From positions 1 through 64,000 of the IMG/VR virus record IMGVR_UViG_3300009514_000016: a DNA stretch of 64,000 nucleotides; one strand, written 5' to 3'. Under the pieces are notes generated by a model. It was not told the origin of the DNA and searched no databases. It worked only from the letters and a program-made list of their open reading frames with translations. Below, piece by piece: positions 9,738-63,914 of the stretch. This DNA is from a virus. The first letter of the stretch is position 1; each line of letters opens with the position of its first letter. A program made the translations under genes and the position numbers.

Positions 9738-9965
9738 ATGTCTCATCATTGCGTGAGAAATATTGTGTCAGAAATATATTACAATTTTGATCATAAAGAA
9801 GAATTGAAAATACAGCTGGTTCCATATGATCAAGATGCTTTTTGCAAAAAATATTCTAAAGAATTAGAGCCTACACTAAAAATGATGCGAGAAAACAAAA
9901 TTCGCAAAGAAGAAGAGAGACTTCGCAATATAGAAGAGAACAGATACTCAGGACTGGAAATATAA
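9738..9965 (+). CDS. Hypothetical protein, C-terminal YxxLEI tail
   Basis: Ends NRYSGLEI. Confidence 0.65.
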   Translation: MSHHCVRNIVSEIYYNFDHKEELKIQLVPYDQDAFCKKYSKELEPTLKMMRENKIRKEEERLRNIEENRYSGLEI

Positions 9966-10135
9966 TGGAAAACATTGAAGAATTATTCGCAGCAGCATTT
10001 AGGGATGCTCCTCACGAAAGTAAACATAATTTAGCTAAAGCCATGAACAAATGTCTGAAATGTTTATATCCTAGTGTTATTTTTCCTAAAATAGATGATG
10101 ATAAACAATCTGCAAAAATAGAAGGTAGCGAATAG
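9965..10135 (+). CDS. Small hypothetical protein (56 aa)
   Basis: TAATG overlap with the upstream stop; MENIEELFAAAFRDAPHESKHNLAKAMNK... Confidence 0.5.
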   Translation: MENIEELFAAAFRDAPHESKHNLAKAMNKCLKCLYPSVIFPKIDDDKQSAKIEGSE

Positions 10136-10161
10136 AAAATAAAGAATCTAGAAAAAATCAC

Positions 10162-10189
10162 TTGATGTTTTTGTGATGCGGTGTATAAT
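10162..10189 (+). promoter_or_regulatory. Sigma70-like promoter of the leader-tRNA operon
   Basis: TTGATG-16 nt-TATAAT, about 50 nt upstream of the leader ATG. Confidence 0.7.
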
Positions 10190-10239
10190 AACCCCGAGCC
10201 AAAAGCGGCAAGAAATATAAAACTTTAGAAAGAACAAAA

Positions 10240-10305
10240 ATGAAAACTATTACAATCGTGAAAAAGATGGTCATGATTAAAGGTGGAGTCCCGAGACTGC
10301 GCTAA
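10240..10305 (+). CDS. Attenuator leader peptide MKTITIVKKMVMIKGGVPRLR
   Basis: 21-codon ORF between the promoter and terminator; Lys/Ile/Val/Met codons match the downstream tRNA anticodons. Confidence 0.8.
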   Translation: MKTITIVKKMVMIKGGVPRLR

Positions 10306-10341
10306 TAGTTCTCATTTGCTTGAACTAGAGCCGGTCCTGGG
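10290..10341 (+). promoter_or_regulatory. Antiterminator hairpin (alternative to the terminator)
   Basis: CCCGAGACTGCGCTAATAGTTC (10290-10311) pairs with GAACTAGAGCCGGTCCTGGG (10322-10341), sequestering the terminator 5' arm. Confidence 0.7.
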
Positions 10342-10367
10342 AAACCAAGATCGGCTCTTTTCTTTTT
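10327..10367 (+). terminator. Intrinsic terminator directly upstream of the tRNA array (attenuator)
   Basis: AGAGCCGGTCCTGG-GAAA-CCAAGATCGGCTCT followed by TTTCTTTTT; the first tRNA starts 3 nt later. Confidence 0.85.
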
Positions 10368-10455: not shown

Positions 10456-10531
10456 GATCGGGTAGTTCAGTTGGAAGAACGCAATGCTGACATCATTGAG
10501 GCCGCAGGTTCAAGTCCTGCCTCGATCACCA
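10456..10531 (+). tRNA. tRNA-Val(GAC)
   Basis: Cloverleaf; anticodon arm CAATG-CTGACAT-CATTG; encoded CCA. Confidence 0.92.
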
Positions 10532-10614
10532 ATAATCTGAGACGAACGCGAATTGGTTATCTACGATTAATAGGAAAACCCCAATTTGCAATAAACTTGT
10601 TCAGATTAATTATT

Positions 10615-10692
10615 GGCTGCGTAACTCAATTTGGTCAGAGTAGCACTTTCATACGGTGCAAGTTGTAGGTTCGAATCCTACCGCAGCTACCA
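10615..10692 (+). tRNA. tRNA-CAT (elongator Met favoured; Ile2 not excluded)
   Basis: GCACT-TTCATAC-GGTGC anticodon arm; lacks initiator features; encoded CCA. Confidence 0.88.
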
Positions 10693-10733
10693 AAGGTCAG
10701 ATTTTCTAGAAATAGAAAATTACCAAATATTTT

Positions 10734-10810
10734 GGGTCTGTGGTGTAACGGTTAACACACTATTCTGATAAAATAGAGACAGCTTGGTTCAATTCCAGCC
10801 AGACCTACCA
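10734..10810 (+). tRNA. tRNA-Ile(GAT)
   Basis: CTATT-CTGATAA-AATAG; encoded CCA. Confidence 0.9.
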
Positions 10811-10819
10811 GTAAAATAT

Positions 10820-10897
10820 AGGACGATAGCTAAATTGGCACAGCATTCGGCTCTTAACCGAAAGATTATCTGGGTTCAAATCCCAGTCGTCCTACCA
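10820..10897 (+). tRNA. tRNA-Lys(CTT)
   Basis: TTCGG-CTCTTAA-CCGAA; encoded CCA. Confidence 0.92.
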
Positions 10898-10905
10898 AAC
10901 AATTT

Positions 10906-10993
10906 GGGTCCATTGCCTAGCGGACGAAGGCACCGGGCTTTTAACCCGGAGTGCGTAAGCCCATCGAAGGTTCGAATCCTTCTGGACCCACCA
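10906..10993 (+). tRNA. tRNA-Lys(TTT) with long variable arm
   Basis: CCGGG-CTTTTAA-CCCGG; 16-nt variable region; encoded CCA. Confidence 0.88.
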
Positions 10994-11058: not shown

Positions 11059-11724
11059 TTATTTATTTTCTCTCTCTTTTGTCGTTTTTATTTTATTTTT
11101 ATTTCTATTAGGTTCGACACTGTTTTTCATGTGACTATTCATTGATGTAGAACCATTTTTATAGTGTACTGAATAACCATTAGAATCTATTCTGGCAGGC
11201 CCGTCAGCTCTGTGTAGTTTCCCATTTCTATGCCATTTTAAATTGCCATTATGCATCCATGATGGTCTGTCGTCCCAACTATGCAGTTCGCCTTTGTGGT
11301 TTACTGTATATTGCGCCCCTGTTTCTTTATCAGTTCTGTATTCTTTGTAATTCGCTATCGGGACAGCTAGAGCGAATATTTCTACCAATTCATTAATTTT
11401 TGAATCAACATTCTTTATCTGCATTTGCAAAGATGTTTTTATTGAATTGCAGTATTGTTTTATTTCCATTATCTTCTCATGAACTGTGTCATAACTTATG
11501 TCTGGAAAGTCAAGTGAGCATTTTTCATTTAAATATGAATCGATTGAATCGATTAATGAATTTTCTTCAGATTCTTCATTGTCGTCAATGTCTATCGAAA
11601 TGGTATCTTTAGTTATATGATTTGGGGCAGATGGATCTATGTAATCTGGCGCATGGCGTTTTATTTTATCATTTTTATTGATCAGTTCATTTGCGATTTT
11701 TAATTTGTTAATATCAATTCCCAT
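11059..11724 (-). CDS. Hypothetical protein with LHRxDGPA-type repeats
   Basis: GELHSWDDRPSW, GKLHRADGPARI; a repeat type common in large viruses. Confidence 0.7.
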   Translation of the reverse strand: MGIDINKLKIANELINKNDKIKRHAPDYIDPSAPNHITKDTISIDIDDNEESEENSLIDSIDSYLNEKCSLDFPDISYDTVHEKIMEIKQYCNSIKTSLQMQIKNVDSKINELVEIFALAVPIANYKEYRTDKETGAQYTVNHKGELHSWDDRPSWMHNGNLKWHRNGKLHRADGPARIDSNGYSVHYKNGSTSMNSHMKNSVEPNRNKNKIKTTKERENK

Positions 11725-11895: not shown

Positions 11896-12405
11896 TTAAA
11901 TTTCAAGCCATTTATAGTTGTCCATTTTGAAGTCTGGATCAACTATTGATCTTATTTCAAAGTAATGGTCTTCATCGTATGTCGCCCTAACGTTCCCATC
12001 TATGATTGCCATGATGTGTCCCAAGTTGACTCCCATGAAAACTGATGAAGCTTGAAATCTTATGACTCCACCTCTGAAAACTGCATAGGAAACATCTAAT
12101 CCTTTTCCGTCAGGGAGCGCAGCAATATTGTGATAGTAGATATCATCATCTTTTGTTAAAGTGCGATCTTTCTCATTCGAGTTTATGATCTCGATGAAGT
12201 AGATTTGTTTCCATTGGAAGCAGTACACTTCTTTGTTTTTTGTGAAAACAATTTCTTCCGGGCCGCTTCGTTTAATCTTAACATTTCTTAAAGTAAGATT
12301 GGCTTTTAAAAACACATCGCAATCAGCGCCAGTATACATGTATGTTTTTGGATCGCAATAGATTGACGTAACTGGATAGAGCCTATATTTTCGATATAAT
12401 TTCAT
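11896..12405 (-). CDS. Hypothetical protein, YxxLEI tail
   Basis: Ends DNYKWLEI; TGTATAAT upstream. Confidence 0.7.
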   Translation of the reverse strand: MKLYRKYRLYPVTSIYCDPKTYMYTGADCDVFLKANLTLRNVKIKRSGPEEIVFTKNKEVYCFQWKQIYFIEIINSNEKDRTLTKDDDIYYHNIAALPDGKGLDVSYAVFRGGVIRFQASSVFMGVNLGHIMAIIDGNVRATYDEDHYFEIRSIVDPDFKMDNYKWLEI

Positions 12406-12501: not shown

Positions 12502-13161
12502 ATGGCGTATCTAATTGCTAACCTTCCACCTGTTCAGTGCTTTATTAAAAAAGAGTATCTGTATGACCTAGAGAAAGGTCATGGAGAATTGACTCCTTGC
12601 ATATGGGTGACAGTGAAATCGATAAAAGGCAGAGCTTTATATATTGAGTCATTGATCCCCGAGTATGGAGCGCTATATGATAAGCTTCCTTTGAGTGCTT
12701 ATGTGTGGAAAGCAGACTTCAATGAAGAAGAGCACTACTTATTAGACTTTTTAGAGATTTGGGATGCATTCTCTTATAATATATCTGTTTTAGAAAAAGC
12801 ATCGCTAAAAGGCTTGAGATGCAAAGTATTTATGAAGAATAAACAATGGGCGCATGGAACTTATATGTTTACCATAGATTCGTGTCATAGTGAACCGAAT
12901 GAATTGAATACTTCATTATCTGAAACTCCTAACGAGCATAAATCATTCAACATAATTAAACTGGATAATGGCCAGTTCGCAGCGCAGCCAAACAATAGGA
13001 TTATATGGTTTGAACAGAGTTTAATTCCTATTGAAGTTAAAACTCCAGATTTTAAAGTATCCACCAAAGAATATTCAGTAGAAATATCGGAGAAATGGTC
13101 TGCTGGAAGTCAGAATAAATATTTCTATGAAATAGAAGAAGGCAATAAATCAGAAGATTAG
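12502..13161 (+). CDS. Conserved phage hypothetical protein
   Basis: AAGGAG RBS. Motifs MAYLIANLPP...EHKSFNIIKLDNGQFAAQPNNR resemble a family I recall from aquatic phages. Confidence 0.75.
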   Translation: MAYLIANLPPVQCFIKKEYLYDLEKGHGELTPCIWVTVKSIKGRALYIESLIPEYGALYDKLPLSAYVWKADFNEEEHYLLDFLEIWDAFSYNISVLEKASLKGLRCKVFMKNKQWAHGTYMFTIDSCHSEPNELNTSLSETPNEHKSFNIIKLDNGQFAAQPNNRIIWFEQSLIPIEVKTPDFKVSTKEYSVEISEKWSAGSQNKYFYEIEEGNKSED

Positions 13162-13565
13162 ATTTCCAAATTTTCATAGAATGATTTATTTTCTCTGATA
13201 ATAGTTTCCCCGTGGAATTCTTTTATCGCGGTCAATAATTCTTTTTTATTCAATTTTTCTGATTTGGGGATATGTCCTCGTTTTAGATCTGGATCAAATC
13301 TCCACAATAGCTCGTTTGGAAGTATATTAAATCCGATTTTTGTTTTGTCAAACAAATTGAGCATAACAAGATATATCACTGCATGTGAAGTATTGTTTTC
13401 AATAATCTTACCTTCAAATTCAACAGATGATGGGTTATTGCCGCCAAGCATAGTTGTTTTTAGAATAATCCAATCTTCGTTGTCCCATCTGATAACGTCA
13501 TTTTTAATCAAAAAGACAGCAGAAACCCCAGTATATCCCTTGTCGTTAAAAAAATGATGTGCCAT
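13158..13565 (-). CDS. Hypothetical SH3/KOW-like protein, YxxLEI tail
   Basis: Ends SFYENLEI. Confidence 0.7.
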   Translation of the reverse strand: MAHHFFNDKGYTGVSAVFLIKNDVIRWDNEDWIILKTTMLGGNNPSSVEFEGKIIENNTSHAVIYLVMLNLFDKTKIGFNILPNELLWRFDPDLKRGHIPKSEKLNKKELLTAIKEFHGETIIRENKSFYENLEI

Positions 13566-14134
13566 TATATTTCAACCATTCTATATCTCGGATCATCTAT
13601 TCCATTGTCAAAATCTGCTTTAAATCTTGGCCGGAAAACAATTATCGGATCATTGAAAGAACACTGCATTTTAATCTCTTTGTCTTTGAAAGACTCAGAA
13701 GCGAACTGAGTCCCTTTAACATGAAGGTAGACATCATTGTATTTTTTGCCAACTAATAGTTTCTGAACTTCAACTATGAATTGGCCTTCATGTTTAACGA
13801 TGATATCTTCGCGCTCTAGTAATCCACATTTAGTTTGGACAATATCGCAGTGCATTAAGCAGTGTCTTAAGTTTTCATCATTAAATGCGCAGATGCTCTC
13901 GTTGGGATAATTAAAGAAACTAGCTCCGTCCTGCGTGGCATCATTAAAAGCTTGAGTTTCTATTTTGTTTTCTCCATTCTCTGATGATTGGAATCCCCTT
14001 ATACTAACAACGGAATAGAATTTACAATCATAGTAAATCTTATCGCTAACAAGCAGATCTTTGAATTTAATGTTTCTGAATCCAATGGCGTATGCTTTAT
14101 CTCTTAGATCTTTGTCTTCTTCTATGTGACTCAT
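13565..14134 (-). CDS. Hypothetical protein with two SH3/KOW-like repeats, YxxVEI tail
   Basis: Start moved to MSHIEEDK to avoid overlap with 14137..14388; ends PRYRMVEI. Confidence 0.7.
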   Translation of the reverse strand: MSHIEEDKDLRDKAYAIGFRNIKFKDLLVSDKIYYDCKFYSVVSIRGFQSSENGENKIETQAFNDATQDGASFFNYPNESICAFNDENLRHCLMHCDIVQTKCGLLEREDIIVKHEGQFIVEVQKLLVGKKYNDVYLHVKGTQFASESFKDKEIKMQCSFNDPIIVFRPRFKADFDNGIDDPRYRMVEI

Positions 14135-14136
14135 TT

Positions 14137-14388
14137 TTATGTTGGCCACAATACTACGGCTGGAATCCCGTCTTCTGCAACATCTTCTTCTGAATAGCCC
14201 TGTTTCTCTAGTTCTGGAGTTAATTTTTCCAACCCGAGGTATCCACTGCATCCATCTTCAATATAAGCGGAATAACTAAACTCATAGAGCGGAGAAAAAT
14301 CATTTCCCTCTGGATCTCCTGACATAACGATAATTCTGTCTTTGTTTTCTACTGCTTGCAGTGCTTCAATCAATTCTTTCACAGTCAT
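14137..14388 (-). CDS. Small phage hypothetical protein (MTVKELIEAL family)
   Basis: GGAG RBS; TATAAT upstream; DPEGNDFSP motif. Confidence 0.75.
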   Translation of the reverse strand: MTVKELIEALQAVENKDRIIVMSGDPEGNDFSPLYEFSYSAYIEDGCSGYLGLEKLTPELEKQGYSEEDVAEDGIPAVVLWPT

Positions 14389-14427: not shown

Positions 14428-14781
14428 CTATATTTCAATAAAATCATAAAATGTTTTGTCATTTTGATGTGTTTTGATTTTTTCTGCGCCTTTGCTTAAG
14501 ACTTTATATGAATAATCTTTAACGCAGTTTGTGCTTCTAACTTCTTTATCTAGTGGATCTTCTTTGAAATAAATTTCGTACCATCCCTTTTCATCGGCAA
14601 GTTGATCCCGATTAACCACTTGAGTGACAATTCCCATATAAGATATGCTATTGAATGGAGGTGGAGGAATGTAGAATATATCTCCAGGGCACAGATCTAT
14701 AACCTCAGTTTCTTTCCAGTATTCTCCAGGAAGCAAATCATCTAAATTAACAGGGATTCTTGGTGTGTCTGCAAACATCAT
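14428..14781 (-). CDS. Hypothetical SH3/KOW-like protein, YxxIEI tail
   Basis: Ends DKTFYDFIEI; paralog of the upstream gene's C-terminal half. Confidence 0.7.
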   Translation of the reverse strand: MMFADTPRIPVNLDDLLPGEYWKETEVIDLCPGDIFYIPPPPFNSISYMGIVTQVVNRDQLADEKGWYEIYFKEDPLDKEVRSTNCVKDYSYKVLSKGAEKIKTHQNDKTFYDFIEI

Positions 14782-15485
14782 ATCTCCAAAAAATCATAAA
14801 ATGTTTTGTCACTCTTTTTAGGAAGTGGAACATCTTTTTCCCGCAAAATTTCGACAATATAGTCCATTGCGCAACTCCATGCTCGATGTTTGCCAGTGGA
14901 ATCAATAAAATGAATCTTTTGCCATCCATTATGCTCATCTGATGGTATTGGATGTTTCTCGATTTGGATAATCTGCCCCACATGACCTGTGATTAATCCA
15001 AAATCATCACTCGGATCAGCCGGAATAAATATTATTTCTCCAACATTAATATCATAAGCAGCGGTTATTTGCCAACACTGATGATCCTCAATGCTGCCGT
15101 GGGATTTGGGAATTAAATTAGTCCATACAGTCGCTGATTTCTTTTCATCTTCTTCATCGGAACTCACTTCTGTGCCAAAAATTGCCTGATCAAACGTTGG
15201 AATGTCAAAGAATTTTTTGCCATTTATTCCAAGCCCCGATAAAGCGCCTTCAAAGATGTTTGGAGTGATTTTTGGTTTTCCCGATCCGCTATAAATTTGA
15301 AGTCCTGGCCAGAAATAAGGAATTGTAAATGTGCTGGCGAGATTTGATTCGCTATCAACCTTGAAATGAATTGTGGCTTGCTTTTCAGAGAGATCAATGT
15401 CAATGACTAGACCCATGAAAGTCCCGTTCACCCCAATTAGGTCGCCAATTTTGATTTGCTTAACTTCAACATTGACCCAGTTCAT
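14778..15485 (-). CDS. Hypothetical protein with two SH3/KOW-like domains, YxxLEI tail
   Basis: Ends DKTFYDFLEI. Confidence 0.7.
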   Translation of the reverse strand: MNWVNVEVKQIKIGDLIGVNGTFMGLVIDIDLSEKQATIHFKVDSESNLASTFTIPYFWPGLQIYSGSGKPKITPNIFEGALSGLGINGKKFFDIPTFDQAIFGTEVSSDEEDEKKSATVWTNLIPKSHGSIEDHQCWQITAAYDINVGEIIFIPADPSDDFGLITGHVGQIIQIEKHPIPSDEHNGWQKIHFIDSTGKHRAWSCAMDYIVEILREKDVPLPKKSDKTFYDFLEI

Positions 15486-16008: not shown

Positions 16009-16287
16009 CTAGATTTCTAGTGCGCCATAAGGATCAGTTCTGTAATCGGATTCTAACTCGTCCATAAAAACACTCAGGCAATGTCCATAATCTTCTTCCC
16101 AATGATATATTTTGTCGTGATACGACTTATGAGTCAGCCCTTCAATGCTTTCTCTAATAAATATTAGAGACGCCATTTGCTCTGAATTTGGAGTCGTCAT
16201 GAATCGAACAAATCCGCCAGTTAGCATATCGCGAGTGTAACCATGATTGGTCCAGATCAAATATGATAAAGTCATGGTTATAAAAAA
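16009..16287 (-). pseudogene. 3' half of an LEI-tail gene interrupted by the TnpB element
   Basis: Ends DPYGALEI; joins in frame to 17571..17765 when 16288..17570 is removed. Confidence 0.55.
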
Positions 16288-17570
16288 CAGGGACAATCAG
16301 GAACACTGATTATCATTATTTTTCATTTTTCTTTCTTTTGCAGCCCAGGGACCATAACAGGATTATTTAATCCTTCCACCTGAGAAAAACAAGAATTTCC
16401 ATCACTATTCTGTGACTTGAGAATCTCCTCCTGCAACCGCTTCTGCGTTCTTCTTAACAAATTAAGTGATCCCACATAATCTGCGTCAGCTTTATGTCCG
16501 CATTGTTTGCAATGAAAACTCTCCTTACTCCTGTTCTTAATGGACTCCCAACCACAAAGCGGACATATCCTGGAAGTGTTTTTTGGATCAACCTCTAAAA
16601 GATGAACACGGTTCTCTTCTGACTTGTTTCTGATCCTCATTACCACCTGAGAATATGCCCATGGGGCCATCTGTTTTCTTAACTTCTTATAACTCTTCTT
16701 TGAAGTGTTCTTCTTCAAATTTGTCAAATCTTCAATTCCTAAAACCTGGATTTCATCCCAAGGGAGATTCTTAATAACCTTAGCAATATAGTCATCTCTC
16801 CTCTTAATGGCTCTCCTTTTAGCTATGGAACCTTGCTTCTTTCTAGCAACAGCTTGACATAGTTCCTTAATTTTTATTCCATATCTCCTATTCTTATTGT
16901 CAACACAGAGTTTATTATAACCAAGGTCAATTGCTAAAGTGTCTCCCTTAGTCTTTAATGGAGTGTCAGGAACTTCAACAAATAAACTGATATATTTATT
17001 GGATAACTGACAACCTTGAAGCAGTTTAGCCCCTGGTTTCTTTAACCACCTGTTTAGTGCTCTATTTGATTTAATAGGAACTTCAATTGGAGAACCTTTT
17101 TTCATTCCAGAGATTCTAACACAATAATCAAAGTGTTCTTGTCTAAATTTTTCAACTTTGCAAGTGTTTATAGAAAGTCTGATTGCTCCTTCAACTTTTG
17201 GAACAGAAGCTTTAACTTTTAGTGCTTTTGCTGATTTCTTTGTGGAAATAACAGTTTCCAAAGAAAATTTTAATGCTTCAGTCTTTTGCCTATAACCAAG
17301 AGAGCCAGAATTTAATCTTTTCAATGTTTTAGCATCTAGCTTCCCTTTTTCTATCCAAAGAGAGGGAATATAAGAATTCACTGCATGAAGAAGCTCTCTT
17401 CTATAAGCTTGAAGAGCTTTCTTTTTCTCTTGAGTTAGATGGGATATGGATATTTTAAAACTTCTTAACATAGTGTGTTTATTATACAATGGATTATTTT
17501 GCGGAAAGTGAAAACAAGGAACGTTCCTTATTGTGAGATTTTTGTCTTAGATTGTCCTTATTTGTCCCTA
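16288..17570 (-). mobile_element. Non-autonomous TnpB-only element (about 1.28 kb) with short terminal inverted repeats
   Basis: Ends TAGGGACAA / TTGTCCCTG on the minus strand; subterminal GACAA-type repeats; no transposase inside. Confidence 0.6.
16323..17471 (-). CDS. tnpB: TnpB-family RNA-guided nuclease
   Basis: RuvC-I AIDLG, RuvC-II GIEDL, Zn ribbon CPLCG/CKQCG, RuvC-III ADADYVGSLN. The ATG start (MLRSFK) is 9 nt after TGTATAAT. Confidence 0.92.
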   Translation of the reverse strand: MLRSFKISISHLTQEKKKALQAYRRELLHAVNSYIPSLWIEKGKLDAKTLKRLNSGSLGYRQKTEALKFSLETVISTKKSAKALKVKASVPKVEGAIRLSINTCKVEKFRQEHFDYCVRISGMKKGSPIEVPIKSNRALNRWLKKPGAKLLQGCQLSNKYISLFVEVPDTPLKTKGDTLAIDLGYNKLCVDNKNRRYGIKIKELCQAVARKKQGSIAKRRAIKRRDDYIAKVIKNLPWDEIQVLGIEDLTNLKKNTSKKSYKKLRKQMAPWAYSQVVMRIRNKSEENRVHLLEVDPKNTSRICPLCGWESIKNRSKESFHCKQCGHKADADYVGSLNLLRRTQKRLQEEILKSQNSDGNSCFSQVEGLNNPVMVPGLQKKEK

Positions 17571-17894: not shown

Positions 17895-18839
17895 ATGAAC
17901 AACTGGCCAAATAACTGGTATAGTCAATTCAATAAAATAGCTCAATCTCGTGGTGCTTTGCAAGACATAATCGATGTGCAGAATATATTTATTGATTCAT
18001 TTGCTGAAACCGGGAAAATTGATCAAAAACTGCAGCAATCTATCGTTGATCCTGTTGTTGAAAATTCTGTGCGCGAATTGAGCGCATCAGTGTCTCAATG
18101 GATAGATGATGTTCTGTCTCAAACAAATCAGTGGACGCGCGGAGATCAGAGAGATTTGTCTGTATCAGACTTGAATGTCACTTTAGAGCATAGTTGGGCG
18201 AATGCTATGAGAGAATCAAATACTTTTTATATAAATTTTTCATCTCCAATAACTAATAAAAATAGAGATTCATTATTGCGGATTAGCGAGATGACTCCCC
18301 CAGGAATGGTGGAAGGATATTCCAGCAGAGAATCGATTAGGACATATGATTTTGTAGAATTCAATATCAGAATACTTATAAAAAGCATATTGACAAGCAT
18401 GATGTCTGAATCAATTAACGTATCTGGCAAGGGCGTCTATAGCGCATACGAAAAGTTTCTTGAGAAATGGATCATTCCGAATGTGAGCACAGAATATTAT
18501 CCGCCAAATCCAAATAAACCCGGAGAAAAGATGCGCCCACATGGTCAACAAACTCATTTGTGGCATTTGGTTCATAAGCAGTTTCTTCCATCAAAAATAT
18601 GGGATCTGATAGAAAAATACGGATTCAACATGACAGTCAGAGGAGATCATTCTTCCCTGTCATATAAAAGCCAGAGAACTAAAGCGCCATACAGATACGA
18701 TCCAAGAAAAGGCACAACTGATTTCATTAAATTTCCAAGCATGGCAAATAAATGGGCGGAAAATAAAATGATAACAGACAATGATAAAGTGAAGCTCATT
18801 AGTTTTATTCAGGAGGCAATGGATATCAAAGATGAGTAA
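17895..18839 (+). CDS. Hypothetical protein, N-terminal NWY...KIAQ motif (possible internal head protein)
   Basis: Starts MNNWPNNWYSQFNKIAQ. Confidence 0.7.
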   Translation: MNNWPNNWYSQFNKIAQSRGALQDIIDVQNIFIDSFAETGKIDQKLQQSIVDPVVENSVRELSASVSQWIDDVLSQTNQWTRGDQRDLSVSDLNVTLEHSWANAMRESNTFYINFSSPITNKNRDSLLRISEMTPPGMVEGYSSRESIRTYDFVEFNIRILIKSILTSMMSESINVSGKGVYSAYEKFLEKWIIPNVSTEYYPPNPNKPGEKMRPHGQQTHLWHLVHKQFLPSKIWDLIEKYGFNMTVRGDHSSLSYKSQRTKAPYRYDPRKGTTDFIKFPSMANKWAENKMITDNDKVKLISFIQEAMDIKDE

Positions 18840-19564: not shown

Positions 19565-20542
19565 ATGAATAACTGGTATCTCAAATTCATCAAACTGGCG
19601 CAAGAAGAAAAGTCTCCAACATGGCAAGATGAATTCGCTGATATTAAAGATCGTTTCAGCGTCGCTCACGATATGATGGCAGAAAAAGGCCACCAAACCT
19701 TTCAAGACCCCATGGTCACTGATCTTACAAATATTGATTATATATCAGAACAATTCTTAAATCAACACACTAGCGAAATTTTAGACAAAATAGAAACACT
19801 AAAAAGAAGTTACCAAAACCAAACAAATATCAATGATGAACCACAAGAAATGCCAGATGCTTGGATTGGACCCTATCACGAAGAAGAAATAACATATCCA
19901 GAAGCCAGAGGAAGATTAATGTTTAATTTGCCGCTAATGAATTACAACATAAGCATCAATATGGATATGTATATTGACGAACACCCATCAACATTTGCTT
20001 GGAATCCTAATAATTCATATTTTTCACTTGCAGCAGATTTCACTTCAGAACCAGTTTTATCTAAGAAAGCATTCGAAGGAGAACGCGGAGGAAGCTCAAT
20101 AGTTCATATCCCATACACCTTAGCTAATGAAAAATATATAAAGCCATACCTGAAAAATCTAATAAATGGATCAGTTCATAGCTACATCAATCGAAATAGC
20201 AACGCACTTCAAGATATGCTCCAATCAAAAGCACCTGATCAACATATCGGAAACCTAAATAAAAACAACCAAATGCTAATGAATATAGCATGGAAATTCA
20301 ATGAAGCAAATACTAATAATTGCACTCCAGAAATTCTAGATGGACAATTAGATGGATTGCAACTGGCCGCAGAAATATGCGAACACCCATATATCAGAAA
20401 AATCTACAATGACCACATCAATCCTGACGATAGGCGAGAATCTATCTATGTTAGCAGCCTGTGGTCTCTCCCATATTCTGTTTTTGTGCATTTAGTTCAC
20501 TGGATGGAAGAATTTATCAATAAGAATTCTGGGCCATCCTAA
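19565..20542 (+). CDS. Hypothetical protein, N-terminal NWY...KLAQ motif
   Basis: Starts MNNWYLKFIKLAQ. Confidence 0.7.
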   Translation: MNNWYLKFIKLAQEEKSPTWQDEFADIKDRFSVAHDMMAEKGHQTFQDPMVTDLTNIDYISEQFLNQHTSEILDKIETLKRSYQNQTNINDEPQEMPDAWIGPYHEEEITYPEARGRLMFNLPLMNYNISINMDMYIDEHPSTFAWNPNNSYFSLAADFTSEPVLSKKAFEGERGGSSIVHIPYTLANEKYIKPYLKNLINGSVHSYINRNSNALQDMLQSKAPDQHIGNLNKNNQMLMNIAWKFNEANTNNCTPEILDGQLDGLQLAAEICEHPYIRKIYNDHINPDDRRESIYVSSLWSLPYSVFVHLVHWMEEFINKNSGPS

Positions 20543-21087
20543 ATCTCTAATTGTTCATACCTGTCAACATCTTCAATAAAAGACTCAATTAACTCAACCT
20601 CAATTAGATTTGTACTACACATGTCTTCTGCGACGCTTGCGTCCATTGATGCTAGTTTTTCTTCTTTGCTTTTTGATTTATGTTTTACACAAGTTCCATA
20701 TTTATCGTGAGGCAAAGTAGTGTTATTTGGTAAGAAACACACATTTTTGCAAAACCAAAAATATTCGACAATTGGCCAAGGTCGGTATTCTTCTTTTTGT
20801 TCTGATTTAGAAAGTATATATGTGAATCTCACAAAACTAATAAAACCAATCAAGCATATTATTGCGCCGCTAATGGAAATTATAGAATAATTTCCCGATG
20901 TTAACATGCAAGATATGATACCTATAGTAAAAAAGGTTAATACTACATAAAAACCCTCGAATTCCCCCTGAGGTGTTGTTTTATCAACAGAGTTTTTGAT
21001 TCTATAATATATTATTATAGGAATTGTCACCGGAAGTAACATTATTCTCACCCAAAAACATAGAAAATCCAATATTATTCTCATCAT
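20539..21087 (-). CDS. Membrane protein (about 3 TM), YxxLEI tail
   Basis: Hydrophobic N-half; ends DRYEQLEI. Confidence 0.7.
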   Translation of the reverse strand: MMRIILDFLCFWVRIMLLPVTIPIIIYYRIKNSVDKTTPQGEFEGFYVVLTFFTIGIISCMLTSGNYSIISISGAIICLIGFISFVRFTYILSKSEQKEEYRPWPIVEYFWFCKNVCFLPNNTTLPHDKYGTCVKHKSKSKEEKLASMDASVAEDMCSTNLIEVELIESFIEDVDRYEQLEI

Positions 21088-21563
21088 ATCTCTAAATTCC
21101 CATAAGTTGTTGGTTTGAATTCTTTGATTTCTATTTCTTTGCTTTTAATGTCATTGTTTATTTGCTCATCAATTGTTGCATCTTGACAAAAATTGAAATT
21201 GTTTTTCTCAAGAATTTTAAAAACATCGTCATATTTAGCTCTAATAATTACATTTTTATCAGTCAAAATAGCCAAATATTTGAAACCCAAAACATTTGAG
21301 GAATAAATTTTATTTATAGTTGCTTTATATTTACAGTTTATAGCGCCATCATCATTGCTAATATACCTATCAAAAATATTGCTTATTTCGCTGGCTTCAA
21401 TTTTAGCAAGCTTCATGTTTTCATCGTAAAAATAATATCTTAAAATGTCAATATGAATAACGTCGGATGGACCCAATTCATGAGCATAAAACGCTTCTGA
21501 AATAATCTGGACAGTCTTATGTGGAAGACTCCTATACGCACAGCGATACACTTGATTTGTCAT
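21084..21563 (-). CDS. Hypothetical protein, YxxLEI tail
   Basis: GAGGA RBS; ends TTYGNLEI. Confidence 0.7.
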   Translation of the reverse strand: MTNQVYRCAYRSLPHKTVQIISEAFYAHELGPSDVIHIDILRYYFYDENMKLAKIEASEISNIFDRYISNDDGAINCKYKATINKIYSSNVLGFKYLAILTDKNVIIRAKYDDVFKILEKNNFNFCQDATIDEQINNDIKSKEIEIKEFKPTTYGNLEI

Positions 21564-21965: not shown

Positions 21966-22634
21966 CTATATTTCTAAAACTCCATACATGCCATTTGCAA
22001 GTTTTCTACTTATTATGGTCAAAAATCCTTTTTTATGATCTATAAAATTATCTTTATTATAATAAGGAATGCACAGGCGTCGCTCGCTATCGTCTAAGTC
22101 ATTTTTTATGCTAAGTCTTTTACCAATGTCATAGCCAGACAGCGAATTCTGCAACTCAAGCCACATACGTTTACATTTAAAATAAAGACCTATATACTCT
22201 TTCATTAGTTTGGTCCCATTAAAATTAAATACATATATTAGATCCCCTCCCAAGATATTGTCATGTATATATGTTATTTTATTGTGTGGTTTGATCTCTT
22301 TTAGCGAATTTTTATTGTCCTCATGGCTTAGTGCTATATGGCATTTAGCTATTATTTTGCTTACATCGGTAGACGAATAAGTAAAGTTGCAATGTTGTTC
22401 TTTCATGCAGTATTCAGTAAAATAACTTTTTATCACATATGGAACAGCGTACGTCAGAATGTCCTTTTTTATCGCCTTATAGGGAATTGCGTTTTCTAAT
22501 TTTATTTGACCGCTCTGATCGAATTTGATGTCATCATATTGGTTTTCGTTGAAAAATTCTTGTATCATAGAATGAGTATTGCGTGGCAGTAATTCGTTAA
22601 ATTTGCTAGTATATTGTTGCACAATGCCGCTCAT
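21966..22634 (-). CDS. Hypothetical protein, YxxLEI tail
   Basis: AGGAG RBS; ends GMYGVLEI. Confidence 0.7.
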   Translation of the reverse strand: MSGIVQQYTSKFNELLPRNTHSMIQEFFNENQYDDIKFDQSGQIKLENAIPYKAIKKDILTYAVPYVIKSYFTEYCMKEQHCNFTYSSTDVSKIIAKCHIALSHEDNKNSLKEIKPHNKITYIHDNILGGDLIYVFNFNGTKLMKEYIGLYFKCKRMWLELQNSLSGYDIGKRLSIKNDLDDSERRLCIPYYNKDNFIDHKKGFLTIISRKLANGMYGVLEI

Positions 22635-51776: not shown

Positions 51777-52520
51777 CTATATTTCTAGAAGCATGTCCTT
51801 GGGACCGTCCTCCTCGACAACCAAGAAATCGTCAAAAGCTTTAATGGCTTCATTTGTTTCCGGTTTCTTTGGAGCTAGATCCATGACGGTAACTTCCTCT
51901 CCTTTTGTGTTAGATGATTTGATTTTCTTTGGCTTTTCTTCAGAAGAGTCTTTTATTTCAAAAGGAACCTCTTCTTTTTTCTCTGCTTTTTTAGATGGTC
52001 TGCCACGTTTCTTCGCAGTTTTCTTTGTTGCAGTCTTTTGTGCAGTCTTCTTCTTCGCAGGCTTTGCGCTTCTCTTTTCAAGAATTTCTAGTTCTTCTGC
52101 TGATAACTCTGGCTCAACAGTCTTAAACTCTTCTTTGTCAACCTTGATAAGAAATTTTGCTTTTTCCGCTCCTAAGAAATCAGGCGCAAAAGAATGTTTC
52201 TTAGGCACTGTCAAGAATTTATCTTCTTTAGAAACTCTATAAGTAGCTCTTTTGTCGCCTTCCAGATATTGCAGGGCCATATGTCCTGATGGAAGATGAA
52301 CTGAATAACGAACTGTTTCATTATCATCATATTCTTCTTCTTCTGGATGAATTTCAACTTTCCCAATTAGTTCAAGAACCTTGTGAGAAATCGCATTCTG
52401 CACTTCTGCGGTCTGGAAGTGAACATCGTCAATGTCCACGATTGAATTGTACGGGACTAACGCTCTGGCGCACTCCAACGAAACTGCGGTTTTTCTTGGG
52501 TTTATGTTTTTCAATTTCAT
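51777..52520 (-). CDS. Hypothetical protein with histone-H1-like Lys/Ala tract and LEI tail
   Basis: KKKTAQKTATKKTAKKRGRPSKK (includes an AT-hook RGRP); ends DMLLEI. Confidence 0.7.
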   Translation of the reverse strand: MKLKNINPRKTAVSLECARALVPYNSIVDIDDVHFQTAEVQNAISHKVLELIGKVEIHPEEEEYDDNETVRYSVHLPSGHMALQYLEGDKRATYRVSKEDKFLTVPKKHSFAPDFLGAEKAKFLIKVDKEEFKTVEPELSAEELEILEKRSAKPAKKKTAQKTATKKTAKKRGRPSKKAEKKEEVPFEIKDSSEEKPKKIKSSNTKGEEVTVMDLAPKKPETNEAIKAFDDFLVVEEDGPKDMLLEI

Positions 52521-58873: not shown

Positions 58874-58927
58874 ATTTCAATTCTCCGTTTTGTTCGCTTT
58901 GCAATTATACAAGCTTTGTCGGTGTCT

Positions 58928-59254
58928 CTAAGCTGTTTCTACTAGTTCGTCTTCTGTTTCTTCAACTAGAGAGATAACAGCCAGTACATTTTCATCTTTG
59001 ACGACGGTGTACTTTTGTCCGCCGATTTCAATAATAGTTCCTTGAGAGAAAACAATCTGGTCTCCAAGCTGAACATCAAGATTTTCAAATTCTTTGACTT
59101 GAACACCGATTCTAACGACAGTTCCTTTAATGCTGTTACTATTCATTTCTTCTTCTGATTCAGGAATGAATAGAGCATCAGGGTCTTGTTCCACTTTTTT
59201 AACTGGAGTGACCAAGAAGTGTCTAGGGGCTGGACGAATCTCTACTTTGCTCAT
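58928..59254 (-). CDS. groES: Co-chaperonin GroES-like
   Basis: IRP...LFIP...GTVVRIG...GDQIVF...GQKYTVVKDENVLAVI; adjacent to groEL. Confidence 0.85.
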   Translation of the reverse strand: MSKVEIRPAPRHFLVTPVKKVEQDPDALFIPESEEEMNSNSIKGTVVRIGVQVKEFENLDVQLGDQIVFSQGTIIEIGGQKYTVVKDENVLAVISLVEETEDELVETA

Positions 59255-59561
59255 CTAAGTGCCTTTCATTTTCAATTTGTTTTTTCAATTCATTTGCCAA
59301 TTCAAACTCGCCATTCATGATGGCTTGTTCTAATTGGGATTTCCGCTCTGAATCAGATATATCCTCTTCTTTTATGGAATCACGAGAAATGTTCTCGCAA
59401 TTTGAATTTGTTCTGCCTTTATGTTTTATGCTGCGGCTCTGAATTTCAGTCAGAATAACTTCTAACTCTTCTCTAAAAACATCATAGCATTTTGGGCATC
59501 CCAAGTATGGCGATGTTTTTAGGTTTGCAATTTGGAAACCGCATTCACAAGATTCTGGCAT
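59223..59561 (-). CDS. McsA-like Zn-finger/UVR protein
   Basis: CECG...LGCPKCYDVF...HKG, then UVR-like LEQAIMNGEFELANELKKQI. Confidence 0.75.
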   Translation of the reverse strand: MPESCECGFQIANLKTSPYLGCPKCYDVFREELEVILTEIQSRSIKHKGRTNSNCENISRDSIKEEDISDSERKSQLEQAIMNGEFELANELKKQIENERHLDEQSRDSSSP

Positions 59562-60097: not shown

Positions 60098-60433
60098 TTA
60101 TATCTCTATGTTTGTAAATCTGTCTTCTGAACCACCAGTTTTAGGAGTGTTTTTGCCCTTAACAAATGTATCAGCGATTTTTGTAGCCAAAAATTTGTCT
60201 ATGCATCTAGGCCCGTGAAAAGGAACGTCATATATATGTTCTTTTTTCTTATCTGGCTCAGCGGCTGGTCGGTAGATCTTTAATCTGCAATACATAGTTC
60301 CTGTTCGGATCTCTTTATTGCATCCGGGGCATGTGTAGTCTTTGGACGCAGGAAATCTGGAATCTCTTATTAGTAAATACTCTCCTAAAGATTTTCGAAT
60401 TAGGGGATTCCAATCTGTGTCCTTATTAGCCAT
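60098..60433 (-). CDS. Zinc-finger protein, FxxIEI tail
   Basis: CPGCNKEIRTG...FHGPRC; ends DRFTNIEI. Confidence 0.7.
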   Translation of the reverse strand: MANKDTDWNPLIRKSLGEYLLIRDSRFPASKDYTCPGCNKEIRTGTMYCRLKIYRPAAEPDKKKEHIYDVPFHGPRCIDKFLATKIADTFVKGKNTPKTGGSEDRFTNIEI

Positions 60434-60434: not shown

Positions 60435-60776
60435 TCACTGCCTTTTGATTTTAGATATTTCTAACACTAGATATCTCAAATACATTGGAATTAGGAATAT
60501 CGCAGCAATAGGAAAGAAATAGGCCGACACTCCAAACAACGCTGACATTGAGATGAAAATAGCTGCATTAAAACCAAATTCAAGTTTTGTATGCTCTTTT
60601 CCCTCTTTTGATTTATCAGAAAGTTCTTGAATCTTGTCTAAAATCTTCTCTGAAGCGGCTGTCATAGATTCTGCTAGTTGTTGGCCTTGTTTGTCTTTTG
60701 CGGATTTCGCATTTTTAAGTGTATCAATAAAATCATTATATTCTTGGCCGTAATTGTTTTTATTTTCTTCTGTCAT
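60435..60776 (-). CDS. Membrane protein (C-terminal TM segments)
   Basis: Start moved to MTEENK (ATGA overlap with the upstream stop). Confidence 0.65.
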   Translation of the reverse strand: MTEENKNNYGQEYNDFIDTLKNAKSAKDKQGQQLAESMTAASEKILDKIQELSDKSKEGKEHTKLEFGFNAAIFISMSALFGVSAYFFPIAAIFLIPMYLRYLVLEISKIKRQ

Positions 60777-61213
60777 ATTTCCAACCCAACCCATCTGTCA
60801 GTGTGGTCCCACATTTTTTTGTTCTCTTCATGAAGATATTCGACACTGATATCTTTGTAGACGCAAATCTCTCCAGCGTGAGGCCCCTCAATAAATTCAA
60901 TATTAAATGAAGTGCCAGTGTAGTAGTCTACGTCAATTGAATGTATTATACCAACGGATTGTTCCGGGTCAAATCGTTTCTTAAGTCTTACTTTATCGCC
61001 TATTGTTGGCATCCATTCCATATTGCACGATCCGATGATTTCATATTGTCTAGGATTTAAGACGGCCCGATATCCGGGTTTACCGCTAATGAATGAGACA
61101 AGAACAAATAGGCCAGTCTCGCGCTCTTGCACGCTAAGAATTCTGGCGACACAATTGTGAAGTTGGTGATTTTCGGCCAAACACCGAATCACTTTATCTT
61201 TTTCCGGTTTCAT
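60773..61213 (-). CDS. Hypothetical SH3-like protein, WxxLEI tail
   Basis: Ends DRWVGLEI; TGTATAAT 5 nt before the ATG. Confidence 0.7.
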   Translation of the reverse strand: MKPEKDKVIRCLAENHQLHNCVARILSVQERETGLFVLVSFISGKPGYRAVLNPRQYEIIGSCNMEWMPTIGDKVRLKKRFDPEQSVGIIHSIDVDYYTGTSFNIEFIEGPHAGEICVYKDISVEYLHEENKKMWDHTDRWVGLEI

Positions 61214-61230
61214 GCGCTATTATACAGCGA

Positions 61231-62052
61231 TTAGGAATATATTCTGAGAAGAATATCCTTGATTCTATCGTATCCGAGAGTCTTTTTCAAACCCAGCATG
61301 GCAGTGCTAATGGCAAATGCCCAACGATAATCGTTGTCTTTAATCGAGTCTTTATCAACCTGTTTTGGCTCAACAGTTAATTTGCCAACCAATTTATCAT
61401 AGTAGTCAATATTGTCATAAACCTTATTGAGATTGGCTCTTTCAATATATGATCTCCAAAGATCATTCATATCTTCAGCTATTTTTTTGAACTCTTCGGC
61501 TTTTCCAGTTTCTAAAATATCAGTAACTCTGTGGTGAGTCTCATTATAGCGGTGAGTGTAATTCCTGTCGTGAACTCTGTTCTTGAGAGTCTTTTTCCAT
61601 TGTCCAAATTCTTTCATCATTTTTCTATTGCGAGCATCGAGCATAACTTCTGCTTCTAATTTTTTAAGCATTTCAGGAGAATAGTCTAGCATGACGTTTT
61701 GAGGGTTTTTATAAACGCGATACTCAGCGTCAAAAGCTTCAACAACTCTTTTTTTATTCCATGAGCCAGATTTCGCAATACTGCCATCAAACTTTTTATT
61801 GTTAATGCTGTTTTTGATATCGCGCGGATAAATATGGGTGTCAGCTAACATTGTAATGGTTGATGGAATATCCATGTCTATGTTGGCCATTTTTTTGATG
61901 AGAAATCGGTAATCAACCCCAAATAGGTTCTGGGCGATTTCATCTGAATCTTCAGCGTGCTGCATAATGAATGCAAATTTCTCTGATCCAAGAATGGTGT
62001 GCAGATCGTTTACTAGGTTTCTAATTTCTCTTGAATATGGTTCCATTGACAA
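61231..62052 (-). CDS. Hypothetical protein
   Basis: 273-aa ORF. Confidence 0.65.
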   Translation of the reverse strand: MSMEPYSREIRNLVNDLHTILGSEKFAFIMQHAEDSDEIAQNLFGVDYRFLIKKMANIDMDIPSTITMLADTHIYPRDIKNSINNKKFDGSIAKSGSWNKKRVVEAFDAEYRVYKNPQNVMLDYSPEMLKKLEAEVMLDARNRKMMKEFGQWKKTLKNRVHDRNYTHRYNETHHRVTDILETGKAEEFKKIAEDMNDLWRSYIERANLNKVYDNIDYYDKLVGKLTVEPKQVDKDSIKDNDYRWAFAISTAMLGLKKTLGYDRIKDILLRIYS

Positions 62053-62103
62053 TTTCTCTTTGCAAAAGATATATTGACAATTACAATATCTTGAGGAAGA
62101 TTC

Positions 62104-62475
62104 CTATAGGAAATTTGCCGAAAAGAAAATTATCCCAGCGATAGACATGAGCGCAAGCCCTATCCATAATGCTCCAATGGACAGTTTATTCTCTGCTTCT
62201 GTCTCCGTTTGCGCTTCTGATTTTGTATTCAATTTGTCCAGAACCTCCAAAATCAGTTCATTATTAGCGTAGCATATATTAATAATGTCTCCTGTTTCCT
62301 GATAGATGGTGTTGAATGATTTTTCTACTCCTTTAACAAGCTGCTCAAAATAAGCTGCTGCTTCCATGCTCCGAGCTGTTATTTCTTGATTCTGAGCAGC
62401 CTGAGCACATTCCTGGCACAATTCGCTCTCATTCAGCTCTCCTAGTTCATTGCAGTTATTACATTCTCCGAACAT
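62104..62475 (-). CDS. Zn-finger protein with C-terminal TM anchor
   Basis: Start moved to MFGECNNC (AAGGAG RBS); CxxC...CxxC. Confidence 0.65.
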   Translation of the reverse strand: MFGECNNCNELGELNESELCQECAQAAQNQEITARSMEAAAYFEQLVKGVEKSFNTIYQETGDIINICYANNELILEVLDKLNTKSEAQTETEAENKLSIGALWIGLALMSIAGIIFFSANFL

Positions 62476-62579
62476 ATTCAACTCCTTATGAGATTCAACC
62501 GCTATTATATGAATAAAGTGTTGATGGCCAATGATTTTTAAATTTTCCTCTTTTCCGACACCGAGTATAATACCAAAGA

Positions 62580-63914
62580 TTGAAAGGAATGACAATGAAT
62601 TGGGAAAACATCACAGAATTTATTGTTCCAGCCATGACGACTGGAATAGCCCCGCGCCCAAATATCAAAAACATCAAAACTGAAAATCTTTTTCAGTACA
62701 CAATCAAGTCATATCTCGAATGGACAGATAAAAACAGTCTGACCATTGTTGCTAAAAACGCAATCCCTGGTGATAACATACATCTCTCTGGCTGGAATTT
62801 ATCGGCAAAAACCTTAGATTTAGACGTTAAGTCTATGACTTTCAAAGAAAAATTGTCAACTTTTCTTCTTCCAGTCAAAAGTTACCCGCCAAATACTTAT
62901 GACTCATTTGCCACAACTAAAAATGGCAAAATATTTAATATATCCAATTACCCATATCAAGACCCATACTACAAAACACAAACCAAATCTGATTACCACG
63001 ACTACCGACTGCACATACTGAATAATGATGATAAAACTGGATATGCCGGGGAATATAATATTCTGACTCAAGAACATCCGATGTCAGTAAATATCCCCAT
63101 TAAAGACCAAATATTTGATCACATAAATGAGAGAAATCCATATCCATTCATGAGCACTAGTAATAACAAAGAAAAAACGCTGATAAGCAATGAGAAATTA
63201 GGATTATTCACTGTCTATGATGAAAACCTTAACTACTGTTTATTTGTTGTTCAAGCAAAAGGAGCTAATGCTGCCATCCTGTCCCCGAATGGATGTCAAA
63301 TAATTGTATTCTTGCAACATAAAAACAAGCTAAATTACAAATGCTATGACATAAATTCTGGAACATTGACCAAAACTGGTCAATTTGCCATCGGGAACAA
63401 AAGAAACAAATTTGAACTCAAACCTGAACTAATGGCAATGGACAGCAAAAGAAAGCTGATGTATCTTGGCTATCATAATAATGGAATCCCATATATTGCA
63501 GTTGCTAATTTTGCAGATGATTCAGTTGTGATCAAGCCATTGGGCGACATAAATGAAATCACTTCTATTAAACAAGATGGAGATTATATCTCTGTTGGCG
63601 GGGTTATGGTTAAAGGGATGAATTCTATTAATGCCTATGTCCCAAAGAACACCTTTTCGCTTGCTCTAAAAACAAAACCGACTCACATATGTAACTCTTT
63701 CTTTCAATATGATGATGAAGAAAAAACAATCTCTCACTGCAAGCAATACGATTTCAGCTACAAACTTAATATCGCTAAATCACAGAGCATATCAAGCAAT
63801 ATCGCTAATAATATGTTGGCTGTTATGGTTGACGATCGCATTCAAATCAAGGAATTCATCAATGAGGAGTTGAAAAACACATATGACAAGAAATACCAAG
63901 ACCTTGAAATCTAA
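62580..63914 (+). CDS. Beta-propeller-like hypothetical protein, YxxLEI tail
   Basis: AILSPNG, YDINSG, AMDSKRKLMYLG repeats; ends KKYQDLEI. Confidence 0.7.
   Translation: MKGMTMNWENITEFIVPAMTTGIAPRPNIKNIKTENLFQYTIKSYLEWTDKNSLTIVAKNAIPGDNIHLSGWNLSAKTLDLDVKSMTFKEKLSTFLLPVKSYPPNTYDSFATTKNGKIFNISNYPYQDPYYKTQTKSDYHDYRLHILNNDDKTGYAGEYNILTQEHPMSVNIPIKDQIFDHINERNPYPFMSTSNNKEKTLISNEKLGLFTVYDENLNYCLFVVQAKGANAAILSPNGCQIIVFLQHKNKLNYKCYDINSGTLTKTGQFAIGNKRNKFELKPELMAMDSKRKLMYLGYHNNGIPYIAVANFADDSVVIKPLGDINEITSIKQDGDYISVGGVMVKGMNSINAYVPKNTFSLALKTKPTHICNSFFQYDDEEKTISHCKQYDFSYKLNIAKSQSISSNIANNMLAVMVDDRIQIKEFINEELKNTYDKKYQDLEI

Follow-up and report, generated by a model that had tools for sequence, protein, structure and literature searches.

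A common C-terminal L-E-I tail on orphan accessory proteins of a putative huge-phage contig

Why do many dissimilar proteins of one virus end in the same few residues? The question is raised by positions 1-64000 of the linear IMG/VR viral contig IMGVR_UViG_3300009514_000016, which is 80,185 bp long; this whole stretch of 64,000 nucleotides is referred to here as the window. A preliminary description, made from the letters of the window, had listed fourteen different proteins with the C-terminal tail [YFW]-x-x-[LIV]-E-I-COOH and had proposed that the tail is a phage-wide docking, sorting or degradation tag. All fourteen tails are present exactly as listed. With seven further copies at contig 68340-76808, [LIV]-E-I-COOH ends are found on 21 of the ~93 open reading frames (ORFs) of the contig, and 20 of these 21 possess Y, F or W at position -6.

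Position of the tail and level of selection

The 21 tails give the logo [D/N/T]-[R/P]-[Y/F/W/D]-x-x-[L/I/V]-E-I-COOH, in which position -6 is occupied by Tyr (16 tails), Phe (3), Trp (1) or Asp (1) and position -3 by Leu (18), Ile (2) or Val (1), while Glu and Ile at the end are invariant. When the residues were shuffled within each protein (2000 shuffles), [LIV]EI ends occurred at a mean of 0.13 and a maximum of 3, compared with the 21 observed, and LEI-COOH is ~438-fold over expectation. The ORF set comprises the ~93 called ORFs of at least 50 amino acids (aa) over the full 80,185-bp contig, 25,117 residues in all, and within these residues [YFW]xx[LIV]EI occurs 20 times at the C-terminus and twice internally. 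The count against shuffled proteins and against internal positions, which had been suggested as a check of the motif, thus shows it to be strongly C-terminal, and the signal therefore includes the free C-terminus or, at the least, the place beside the stop codon. An internal occurrence, YLVLEI, lies six residues before the end (…YLVLEISKIKRQ) of a 119-aa membrane ORF (60435..60794, - strand) and appears to be a displaced or decayed copy of the tail. No full tail is encountered on ORFs in non-coding frames; a single spurious ORF of 53 aa, nested in another gene, has MEI as its end. A variant tail, YSLLEL, is found on the contig ORF 69142-69876.

Selection acts on the peptide, as had been supposed from the variety of codons. 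The Glu codons GAA and GAG are used 14 and 7 times in the tails, compared with 74 and 26% genome-wide, all six Leu codons are represented, Tyr is encoded by TAT in 12 tails and by TAC in four, and the stop codons TAA, TAG and TGA number 10, 7 and 4; Glu, Leu, Tyr and stop codons are all used at genome-average rates. The per-base information content tracks the codon structure and no conservation extends beyond the stop. It is because of these three properties, namely average use of synonymous codons and stops, codon-structured conservation and the lack of conserved bases after the stop, that the peptide is regarded as the object of selection.

The opposite possibility is that the peptide is a by-product of a nucleotide-level signal, for example a ribosome-binding or coupling element, a promoter or an RNA-processing site serving the downstream gene. 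Shine-Dalgarno sites (GGAG) are in use on the contig, the sequence TTG GAG ATA TAA TG places GGAG five bases ahead of an overlapping ATG, and 9 of the 21 tagged genes abut the next start. The last Ile codon is moreover over-used as ATA (14 of 21 tails, compared with 30% genome-wide; p = 6e-4), an excess that arises partly from ATATAATG and ATATGATG gene junctions. Against such a signal, GAG is not enriched over GAA (7/21 compared with 26% genome-wide), and the base ahead of GAR is G in just 8 of the 21 tails. Twelve of the 21 tails have no adjacent downstream start, convergent gene ends included; the tail of 20539..21087, for example, belongs to a gene convergent with the next one and has no downstream start to serve. 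The Tyr at -6 would also be left unexplained, third codon positions vary freely and the bases after the stop are unconserved. A Shine-Dalgarno or translational-coupling element is ruled out by the GAG frequency, the 12 tails without an adjacent start and the codon-structured conservation. A nucleotide-level signal is thus largely refuted by the codon analysis, and we consider it the most improbable of the explanations discussed here.

Proteins that carry the tail and their distribution

The tagged proteins are 75-444 aa in length and none possesses a Pfam domain. By BLAST among themselves they are unrelated, except for one paralogue pair and a set with MORN-like 'HREDGPA' repeats. Twelve of the 14 window tails are located on the - strand and two on the + strand, so that both strands are used as had been noted, and 13 of the 14 have the aromatic residue at -6. 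The first + strand gene, 9738..9965, encodes 75 aa ending in NRYSGLEI (tail codons 9945-9962), and its TAA stop overlaps the next ATG. Seven - strand genes occupy the next part of the window: 11896..12405 (169 aa, DNYKWLEI, tail codons 11899-11916), with a GTATAAT site 25 nt upstream of its start; 13158..13565 (135 aa, SFYENLEI, 13161-13178); 13565..14251 (228 aa, PRYRMVEI, 13568-13585), with the sole Val at -3; 14428..14781 (117 aa, TFYDFIEI, 14431-14448), a paralogue of the C-terminal half of 14778..15485 (235 aa, TFYDFLEI, 14781-14798); 16009..16296 (95 aa, DPYGALEI, 16012-16029); and 20539..21087 (182 aa, DRYEQLEI, 20542-20559), a membrane protein with a hydrophobic stretch at residues 3-93. 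On the same strand are 21084..21563 (159 aa, TTYGNLEI, 21087-21104), 21966..22634 (222 aa, GMYGVLEI, 21969-21986), 60098..60433 (111 aa, Cys-rich, DRFTNIEI, 60101-60118) and 60773..61213 (146 aa, DRWVGLEI, 60776-60793), the last with GTATAAT 5 nt upstream of its ATG. The second + strand gene, 62580..63914, encodes a beta-propeller-like protein of 444 aa that ends in KKYQDLEI (tail codons 63894-63911). The remaining one, 51777..52520 (- strand), encodes 247 aa rich in Lys and Glu with an RGRP (AT-hook-like) stretch; it ends in KDMLLEI (tail codons 51780-51797) and is the exception that lacks the aromatic residue.

The bodies of these proteins had been described as SH3-like, membrane, zinc-finger and propeller types. 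Their variety is borne out by BLAST, by the Atlas structure model of 62580..63914, which is a beta-propeller, and by hydropathy, which identifies transmembrane stretches in two tagged proteins; several are Cys-rich. The SH3-like assignment finds no support, the model having a predicted local distance difference test (pLDDT) score of 33; for two tagged proteins, AlphaFold models made from the single sequence were of low quality (pLDDT 33 and 45). The MORN-like repeat family (G-x-L-H-R-x-D-G-P-A) is distributed over window 11059-11724 and contig 70716-71114, 73897-74526, 75868-76808 and 76883-78424. The LEI tail is present on four members of this family and absent from two, and the tail has therefore been gained or lost independently of the body.

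As stated in the preliminary description, the tail is absent from the capsid, portal, terminase and recognised enzymes. By a hand tally, it is found on none of the 12 annotated non-structural genes and on 20 of the 46 unannotated non-structural ORFs (Fisher p = 0.005). The 12 untagged genes encode GroES, GroEL, Hsp20, a NifU-like protein, TnpB, methyltransferases, ROS/MucR zinc-finger proteins, HNH-like and SLOG-like proteins and a CCA-adding-type nucleotidyltransferase; the peptide deformylase and the glycosyltransferases of the left flank (1-8.9 kb) are also untagged. The virion block (~25.5-56.7 kb) contains the capsid protein, a portal-DUF559 endonuclease fusion, the terminase and a protease-like protein, with accessory genes on both of its flanks. 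Within it there is a single tagged gene, 51777..52520, the very one without the aromatic residue. The term phage-wide therefore applies insofar as about one-third of the non-structural genes, mostly orphans, are tagged, and does not extend to the virion block.

Thirteen intergenic GTATAAT sites were identified, all outside the virion block. They head operons with tagged genes, GroES and GroEL as well as the run 69866/69142 (YSLLEL)/68340 (tagged)/67835 (Hsp20). The count is of exact intergenic TATAAT sites and replaced a generic sigma-70 scan, which was uninformative (64 sites compared with 68 expected). At window 59567 and 61219 and contig 73319 the site is located just 2-5 nt before the start codon (for example, of 60773-61213 and 59223-59561), as would result either from leaderless mRNAs or from miscalled start codons.

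A second common tag is N-terminal. The leader M-N-N-W-Y-x-K-F-x-K-x-A-Q, or a close variant of it, is found on 7-8 otherwise dissimilar proteins, encoded at window 17895-20542 (three genes) and 54113-54928 and at contig 66041-67339, 74572-75174 and 78752-79899; the CCA-adding-type enzyme is one of them if it is read from an internal start. None of the proteins with the leader carries the LEI tail. Protease homologues in relatives contain R-[IV]-A-Q in an N-terminal part ahead of the protease domain, a part that is missing from the window's protein, and the leader could be a head-targeting and cleavage signal.

The CheckV completeness of the contig is ~17%. Its major capsid protein matches phrog_2522, a phage major-head-protein family, and shares 81-84% identity with proteins of metagenomic contigs, the largest of which is 476 kb, and 56% identity with gp27 of Bacillus phage G (497 kb). 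On account of these capsid identities to the 476-kb relative and to phage G, the contig is assigned as a fragment of a phage-G-like huge phage. The phage-G-like set consisted of the 476-kb relative (G001, 98% complete), three fragments (G003-G005) and Bacillus phage G, and in none of these was the LEI tail, or a C-terminal motif of comparable enrichment, detected. Homologues of the 21 tagged proteins were likewise absent from these related genomes and phage G, and 80 capsid-gene neighbourhoods and 80 GroEL neighbourhoods showed neither a LEI tail nor another strong C-terminal motif. Searches of larger collections gave the same picture: 21966..22634 and 60773..61213 matched only themselves among 5.8 billion proteins, 62580..63914 only itself among 1.8 billion representatives, and the GenBank phage collection contained nothing beyond the query itself for the tagged proteins. 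Viral, metagenome and genome contigs were also scanned with codon-specific DNA patterns for (DP)YSGLEI-stop; the matches were single chance ones, none at an ORF end. The tag is known from this one contig.

A possible docking tag and its candidate readers

A motif that is strictly terminal, selected as a peptide and distributed over many unrelated proteins suggests a handle for one partner, and the tail probably serves for docking to a partner of some kind, a protease included, that all its bearers share. It would be a short linear motif that is functional solely at a free C-terminus and has been added to mostly orphan accessory genes, and one reader protein would grip all of the tagged accessory proteins through it. 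The proposal of a docking, sorting or degradation tag is accordingly upheld in respect of its peptide-level selection, C-terminal specificity and unrelated bodies, and the comparisons made with ligands of the sliding clamp, single-stranded-DNA-binding protein (SSB) and PDZ domains are unsupported in the 80 kb. The best overall explanation, in which we place slightly better than even confidence, is a terminal docking motif on about one-third of the non-structural genes with one reader that grips them as a set; that there is a single reader, and which protein it may be, we infer.

The candidate put forward as reader, the only concrete one on the contig, is the small heat-shock protein (sHSP) of the phage itself, an Hsp20/alpha-crystallin protein (contig 67835-68251; PF00011 match E = 1.5e-13) whose gene follows a tagged gene of the same strand at a distance of 88 nt downstream. 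It is proposed because L-x-I is the type of peptide bound by the groove of such proteins. During sHSP assembly, a C-terminal I/L/V-x-I/V/L motif inserts into the beta4/beta8 groove of a neighbouring subunit, and a Glu in the middle of I-x-I-type motifs occurs naturally. The C-terminal anchoring motif is L-X-I/L/V in cyanophage and cyanobacterial sHSPs (PMC5028025), and the beta4-beta8 groove binds IXI motifs, BAG3 through its IPV motifs, and parts of some clients (PMC6212398; PMC9237749). The phage Hsp20 possesses an anchoring-type motif of its own, I-K-I, and can be aligned with wheat Hsp16.9 through the C-terminal extension (PVLKQIKIS over PEVKAIQIS). In both of these tails a hydrophobic residue stands three positions before I-x-I, at the place of Y/F/W in the tags. 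All 21 tails contain L/I/V-E-I, in agreement with a C-terminal [I/L/V]-x-[I/V/L] tripeptide; the segment ahead of the tail is slightly more polar, not significantly so. The tail thus resembles the IXI/V motif of sHSPs and the IPV motif of BAG3 as a hydrophobic-x-hydrophobic tripeptide on a C-terminal segment, with an Hsp20 gene among the tagged genes, and BAG3 shows that a protein other than an sHSP can dock through such a motif. It differs in being strictly terminal, in its invariant Glu and Ile and aromatic -6, and in its presence on 21 mostly unrelated proteins of one virus; the sHSP literature examined describes no set of clients that have such a handle for an sHSP built in.

If Hsp20 were the reader, the LEI tail would plug into the beta4/beta8 groove and tether fast-evolving accessory proteins to the chaperone kit of the phage, that is, to Hsp20 and then to GroES/GroEL. 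Such a built-in chaperone handle, amounting to a private client list for the chaperone line of the phage, is a notion of low probability. Both GroES (58928-59254, - strand) and GroEL (57248-58873, - strand) are untagged; GroEL has its own GTATAAT and GroES belongs to an adjacent GTATAAT-headed operon. The proteostasis genes on the fragment comprise a peptide deformylase (8130-8786), GroES/GroEL (57248-59254), Hsp20 (contig 67835-68251) and a NifU-like iron-sulphur scaffold protein (contig 72897-73316). The phage GroEL ends in GIPGIPF in place of the usual Gly-Met repeats, and a BLAST search for GroEL in the 476-kb relative gave no match. A link of the tag to GroEL was considered and is unsupported by other GroEL-bearing viral contigs (80 GroEL neighbourhoods). 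In phage G, both the tag and an Hsp20 are missing.

Several observations weigh against this account. The 476-kb relative has an Hsp20 (ending in KKIPVLTE) but neither tails nor an excess of I-x-I ends; the presence of an Hsp20 is therefore not enough to predict the tag. The tag is strictly terminal with E and I invariant in all 21 copies, and known groove binding needs neither a free carboxylate nor an invariant Glu. The excess of ATA codons points to a small nucleotide-level pressure, and one contig alone carries the tag, with no tag-bearing relative among the genomes examined. Finally, ~17% of the genome is covered, and the gene for the actual reader may lie in another part of the phage genome or in the host. 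Hsp20 is offered as a tentative reader, with a rather low chance of being the right one.

Other readers were sought on the contig itself, and among the proteins scanned in its 80 kb none of the clamp, SSB, PDZ or MoxR type was seen. A PDZ reader is opposed by the lack of any PDZ_2 or PDZ_6 match in the 80 kb and a MoxR/vWA reader by the lack of a MoxR match there. The trypsin-like protein 50469-51776 (- strand) was considered as a PDZ protease and rejected, since the additional C-terminal part resembles a SET domain and other residues stand at the catalytic His and Asp positions. This prohead-protease homologue reads LTSLDAT in the catalytic region where its relatives read LTCAHV, and its extra domain of ~190 aa shows the SET hallmarks …IHGKGV…GEYIG…, …NYDKSPNA… and …KGTELTLDY. 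A copy of the protease-SET protein with 66% identity is found on a 4.4-kb Joint Genome Institute (JGI) contig.

A clamp-binding motif (QL[SD]LF-like or T4-type) was also rejected: the tails have no Gln-Leu core, the tagged proteins lack Pfam domains, and neither polymerase B nor, among the proteins scanned, a clamp was detected. The tails do share with the replication tails of phages (T4 clamp-binding ends, the acidic Phe-ending tails of T7 gp2.5 and gp4, and D-D-D-I-P-F of SSB) their presence at the extreme C-termini of unlike proteins that, in those systems, have one partner. Those tails, however, are acidic and sit on a handful of DNA-handling enzymes, whereas the tail described here has another sequence and is carried by ~20% of the ORFs, among them no recognisable replication protein. 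That one partner may read several proteins through a common C-terminal peptide is established by clamp-binding ends, SSB and T7 tails, ssrA degrons, peroxisomal targeting signal 1 and encapsulin cargo peptides. The present case is new in its sequence, in its scale (~20% of ORFs) and in its bearers, which are orphan accessory proteins.

Among the remaining explanations, a reader other than Hsp20 overlaps the general docking proposal and is a real, if minor, possibility. It may be a PDZ-like, TPR-like or new domain, encoded by the phage in the unseen ~390 kb or by the host, and may serve localisation or the assembly of a hub. L-E-I-COOH agrees with the class II PDZ ligands (hydrophobic-x-hydrophobic-COOH), with which it has in common the free carboxylate, hydrophobic residues at 0 and -2 in PDZ numbering and an upstream aromatic contribution, and such a reader explains the terminal specificity better than the Hsp20 groove does. 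The confinement of the tag to this lineage is as expected for a lineage-specific reader gene, and the part of the genome covered is small (~17%). On the other side, bacterial PDZ proteins are mostly extracytoplasmic, the contig differs from PDZ systems in having no PDZ domain, and no peptide-binding domain was detected in any protein scanned. The tail could instead mark the accessory proteins as a class for clearance, as a C-terminal degron for an AAA+ protease or its adaptor (of host type, such as ClpXP, Lon or FtsH, or encoded in the unseen part of the phage genome); we consider this unlikely. The need for a free C-terminus and the hydrophobic last residues follow the logic of ssrA-type degrons (…YALAA-COOH; ClpXP, ClpAP, FtsH, Lon), which also have an aromatic residue a few positions upstream, and soluble and membrane proteins are both tagged, which is compatible with cytoplasmic proteases such as FtsH. 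The tagged genes are accessory and located behind host-type promoters, with enzymes needed throughout infection left untagged. Unlike ssrA tags, the tails are genomically encoded rather than added by transfer-messenger RNA, and their Tyr stands at -6 rather than -5. Their invariant Glu at -2 departs from the non-polar last residues of LAA-like ends, and an acidic residue there is unfavourable for ClpX-type recognition. The contig also shows no protease or adaptor candidate, its sole protease-like gene having no catalytic His/Asp and having a SET-like domain instead of one for binding peptides, and the relatives, which possibly infect similar hosts, have no tag.

A signal for loading proteins into the head for injection, in the manner of encapsulin cargo peptides or the T4 capsid-targeting sequence, is very unlikely. 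Encapsulin cargo peptides are short, extended C-terminal peptides that bind an HK97-fold shell, and the capsid protein of the contig belongs by its match to a major-head-protein family. There, too, many unrelated proteins belonging to a single HK97-fold particle system are sorted by one short tag. Here, however, the tagged genes are located behind GTATAAT (host-type) promoters and apart from the virion block, a position and a promoter class that speak against late expression directed at the head. In T4 the signal sits at the N-terminus and is removed by cleavage, relatives without the tag have a capsid protein of 81-84% identity, and the N-terminal leader described above is a better head-targeting candidate. 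Explanations without a reader appear scarcely more credible than a nucleotide-level signal; they include a nascent-peptide effect at termination, an intramolecular beta-hairpin cap and the remnant of one exploded paralogue family, and in each of them the tail would act on the protein or ribosome to which it belongs. The tail keeps a fixed distance to the stop, D-P-Y-S-G has the character of a turn and L-E-I that of a strand, and a single-sequence AlphaFold model of a MORN-like protein, itself of low quality, is most confident (~78) at the tail, with a beta-bridge at the Glu at -2. All three stop codons, however, are used at normal rates in diverse downstream contexts, the bodies are of different fold types, the MORN-like family is mixed for the tail and the models are of low overall quality. 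The preferred reading remains the docking tag with one reader.

Neighbouring genes and meaning of the tail

Several other genes of the window have unusual features. The portal protein (35548-37680, - strand) continues in frame into a fused DUF559/Vsr-like endonuclease domain (residues ~618-696), and this architecture is also found in the 476-kb relative, with the alignment extending to its C-terminus. A cluster of five tRNA genes (10456-10993, + strand) comprises Val-GAC, Met-CAT, Ile-GAT, Lys-CTT and Lys-TTT, with a GTATAAT site ahead at 10184. In the left flank, 1032-4934 (- strand) encodes a protein of 1300 aa with at least four glycosyltransferase domains of the GT2 and GT4 types, and 6476-8041 (- strand) encodes a second GT4 protein that is kept in the relatives. 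A TnpB/Cas12f-like protein (16323-17489, - strand; TNB domain E = 1.7e-16) is located among the tagged genes; the relatives found for it are distant only, with 28-30% identity, and come from bacterial metagenome-assembled genomes. Finally, two neighbouring genes at 22718-25330 (- strand) have common ROS/MucR-type zinc-finger modules (40% identity over ~110 aa), and one of the pair additionally possesses methyltransferase-like domains.

Short C-terminal tags with a single reader, such as clamp-binding tails, SSB tails and degrons, are known on small numbers of proteins. We know of no published case in which one-fifth of the genes of a virus carry the same tag, and a literature search of small reach found nothing comparable on shared C-terminal motifs in phage proteins. 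If the tail is a true address label, it would define a functional class among otherwise unannotatable orphan genes, its 8-residue peptide would be a simple handle for fishing out the reader, and it may explain why large phages carry chaperones of their own. With Hsp20 as the candidate, the peptide and one small domain suffice for a direct test, and, if that reading were true, clients with a genetically encoded address for a small heat-shock protein would be seen here for the first time.

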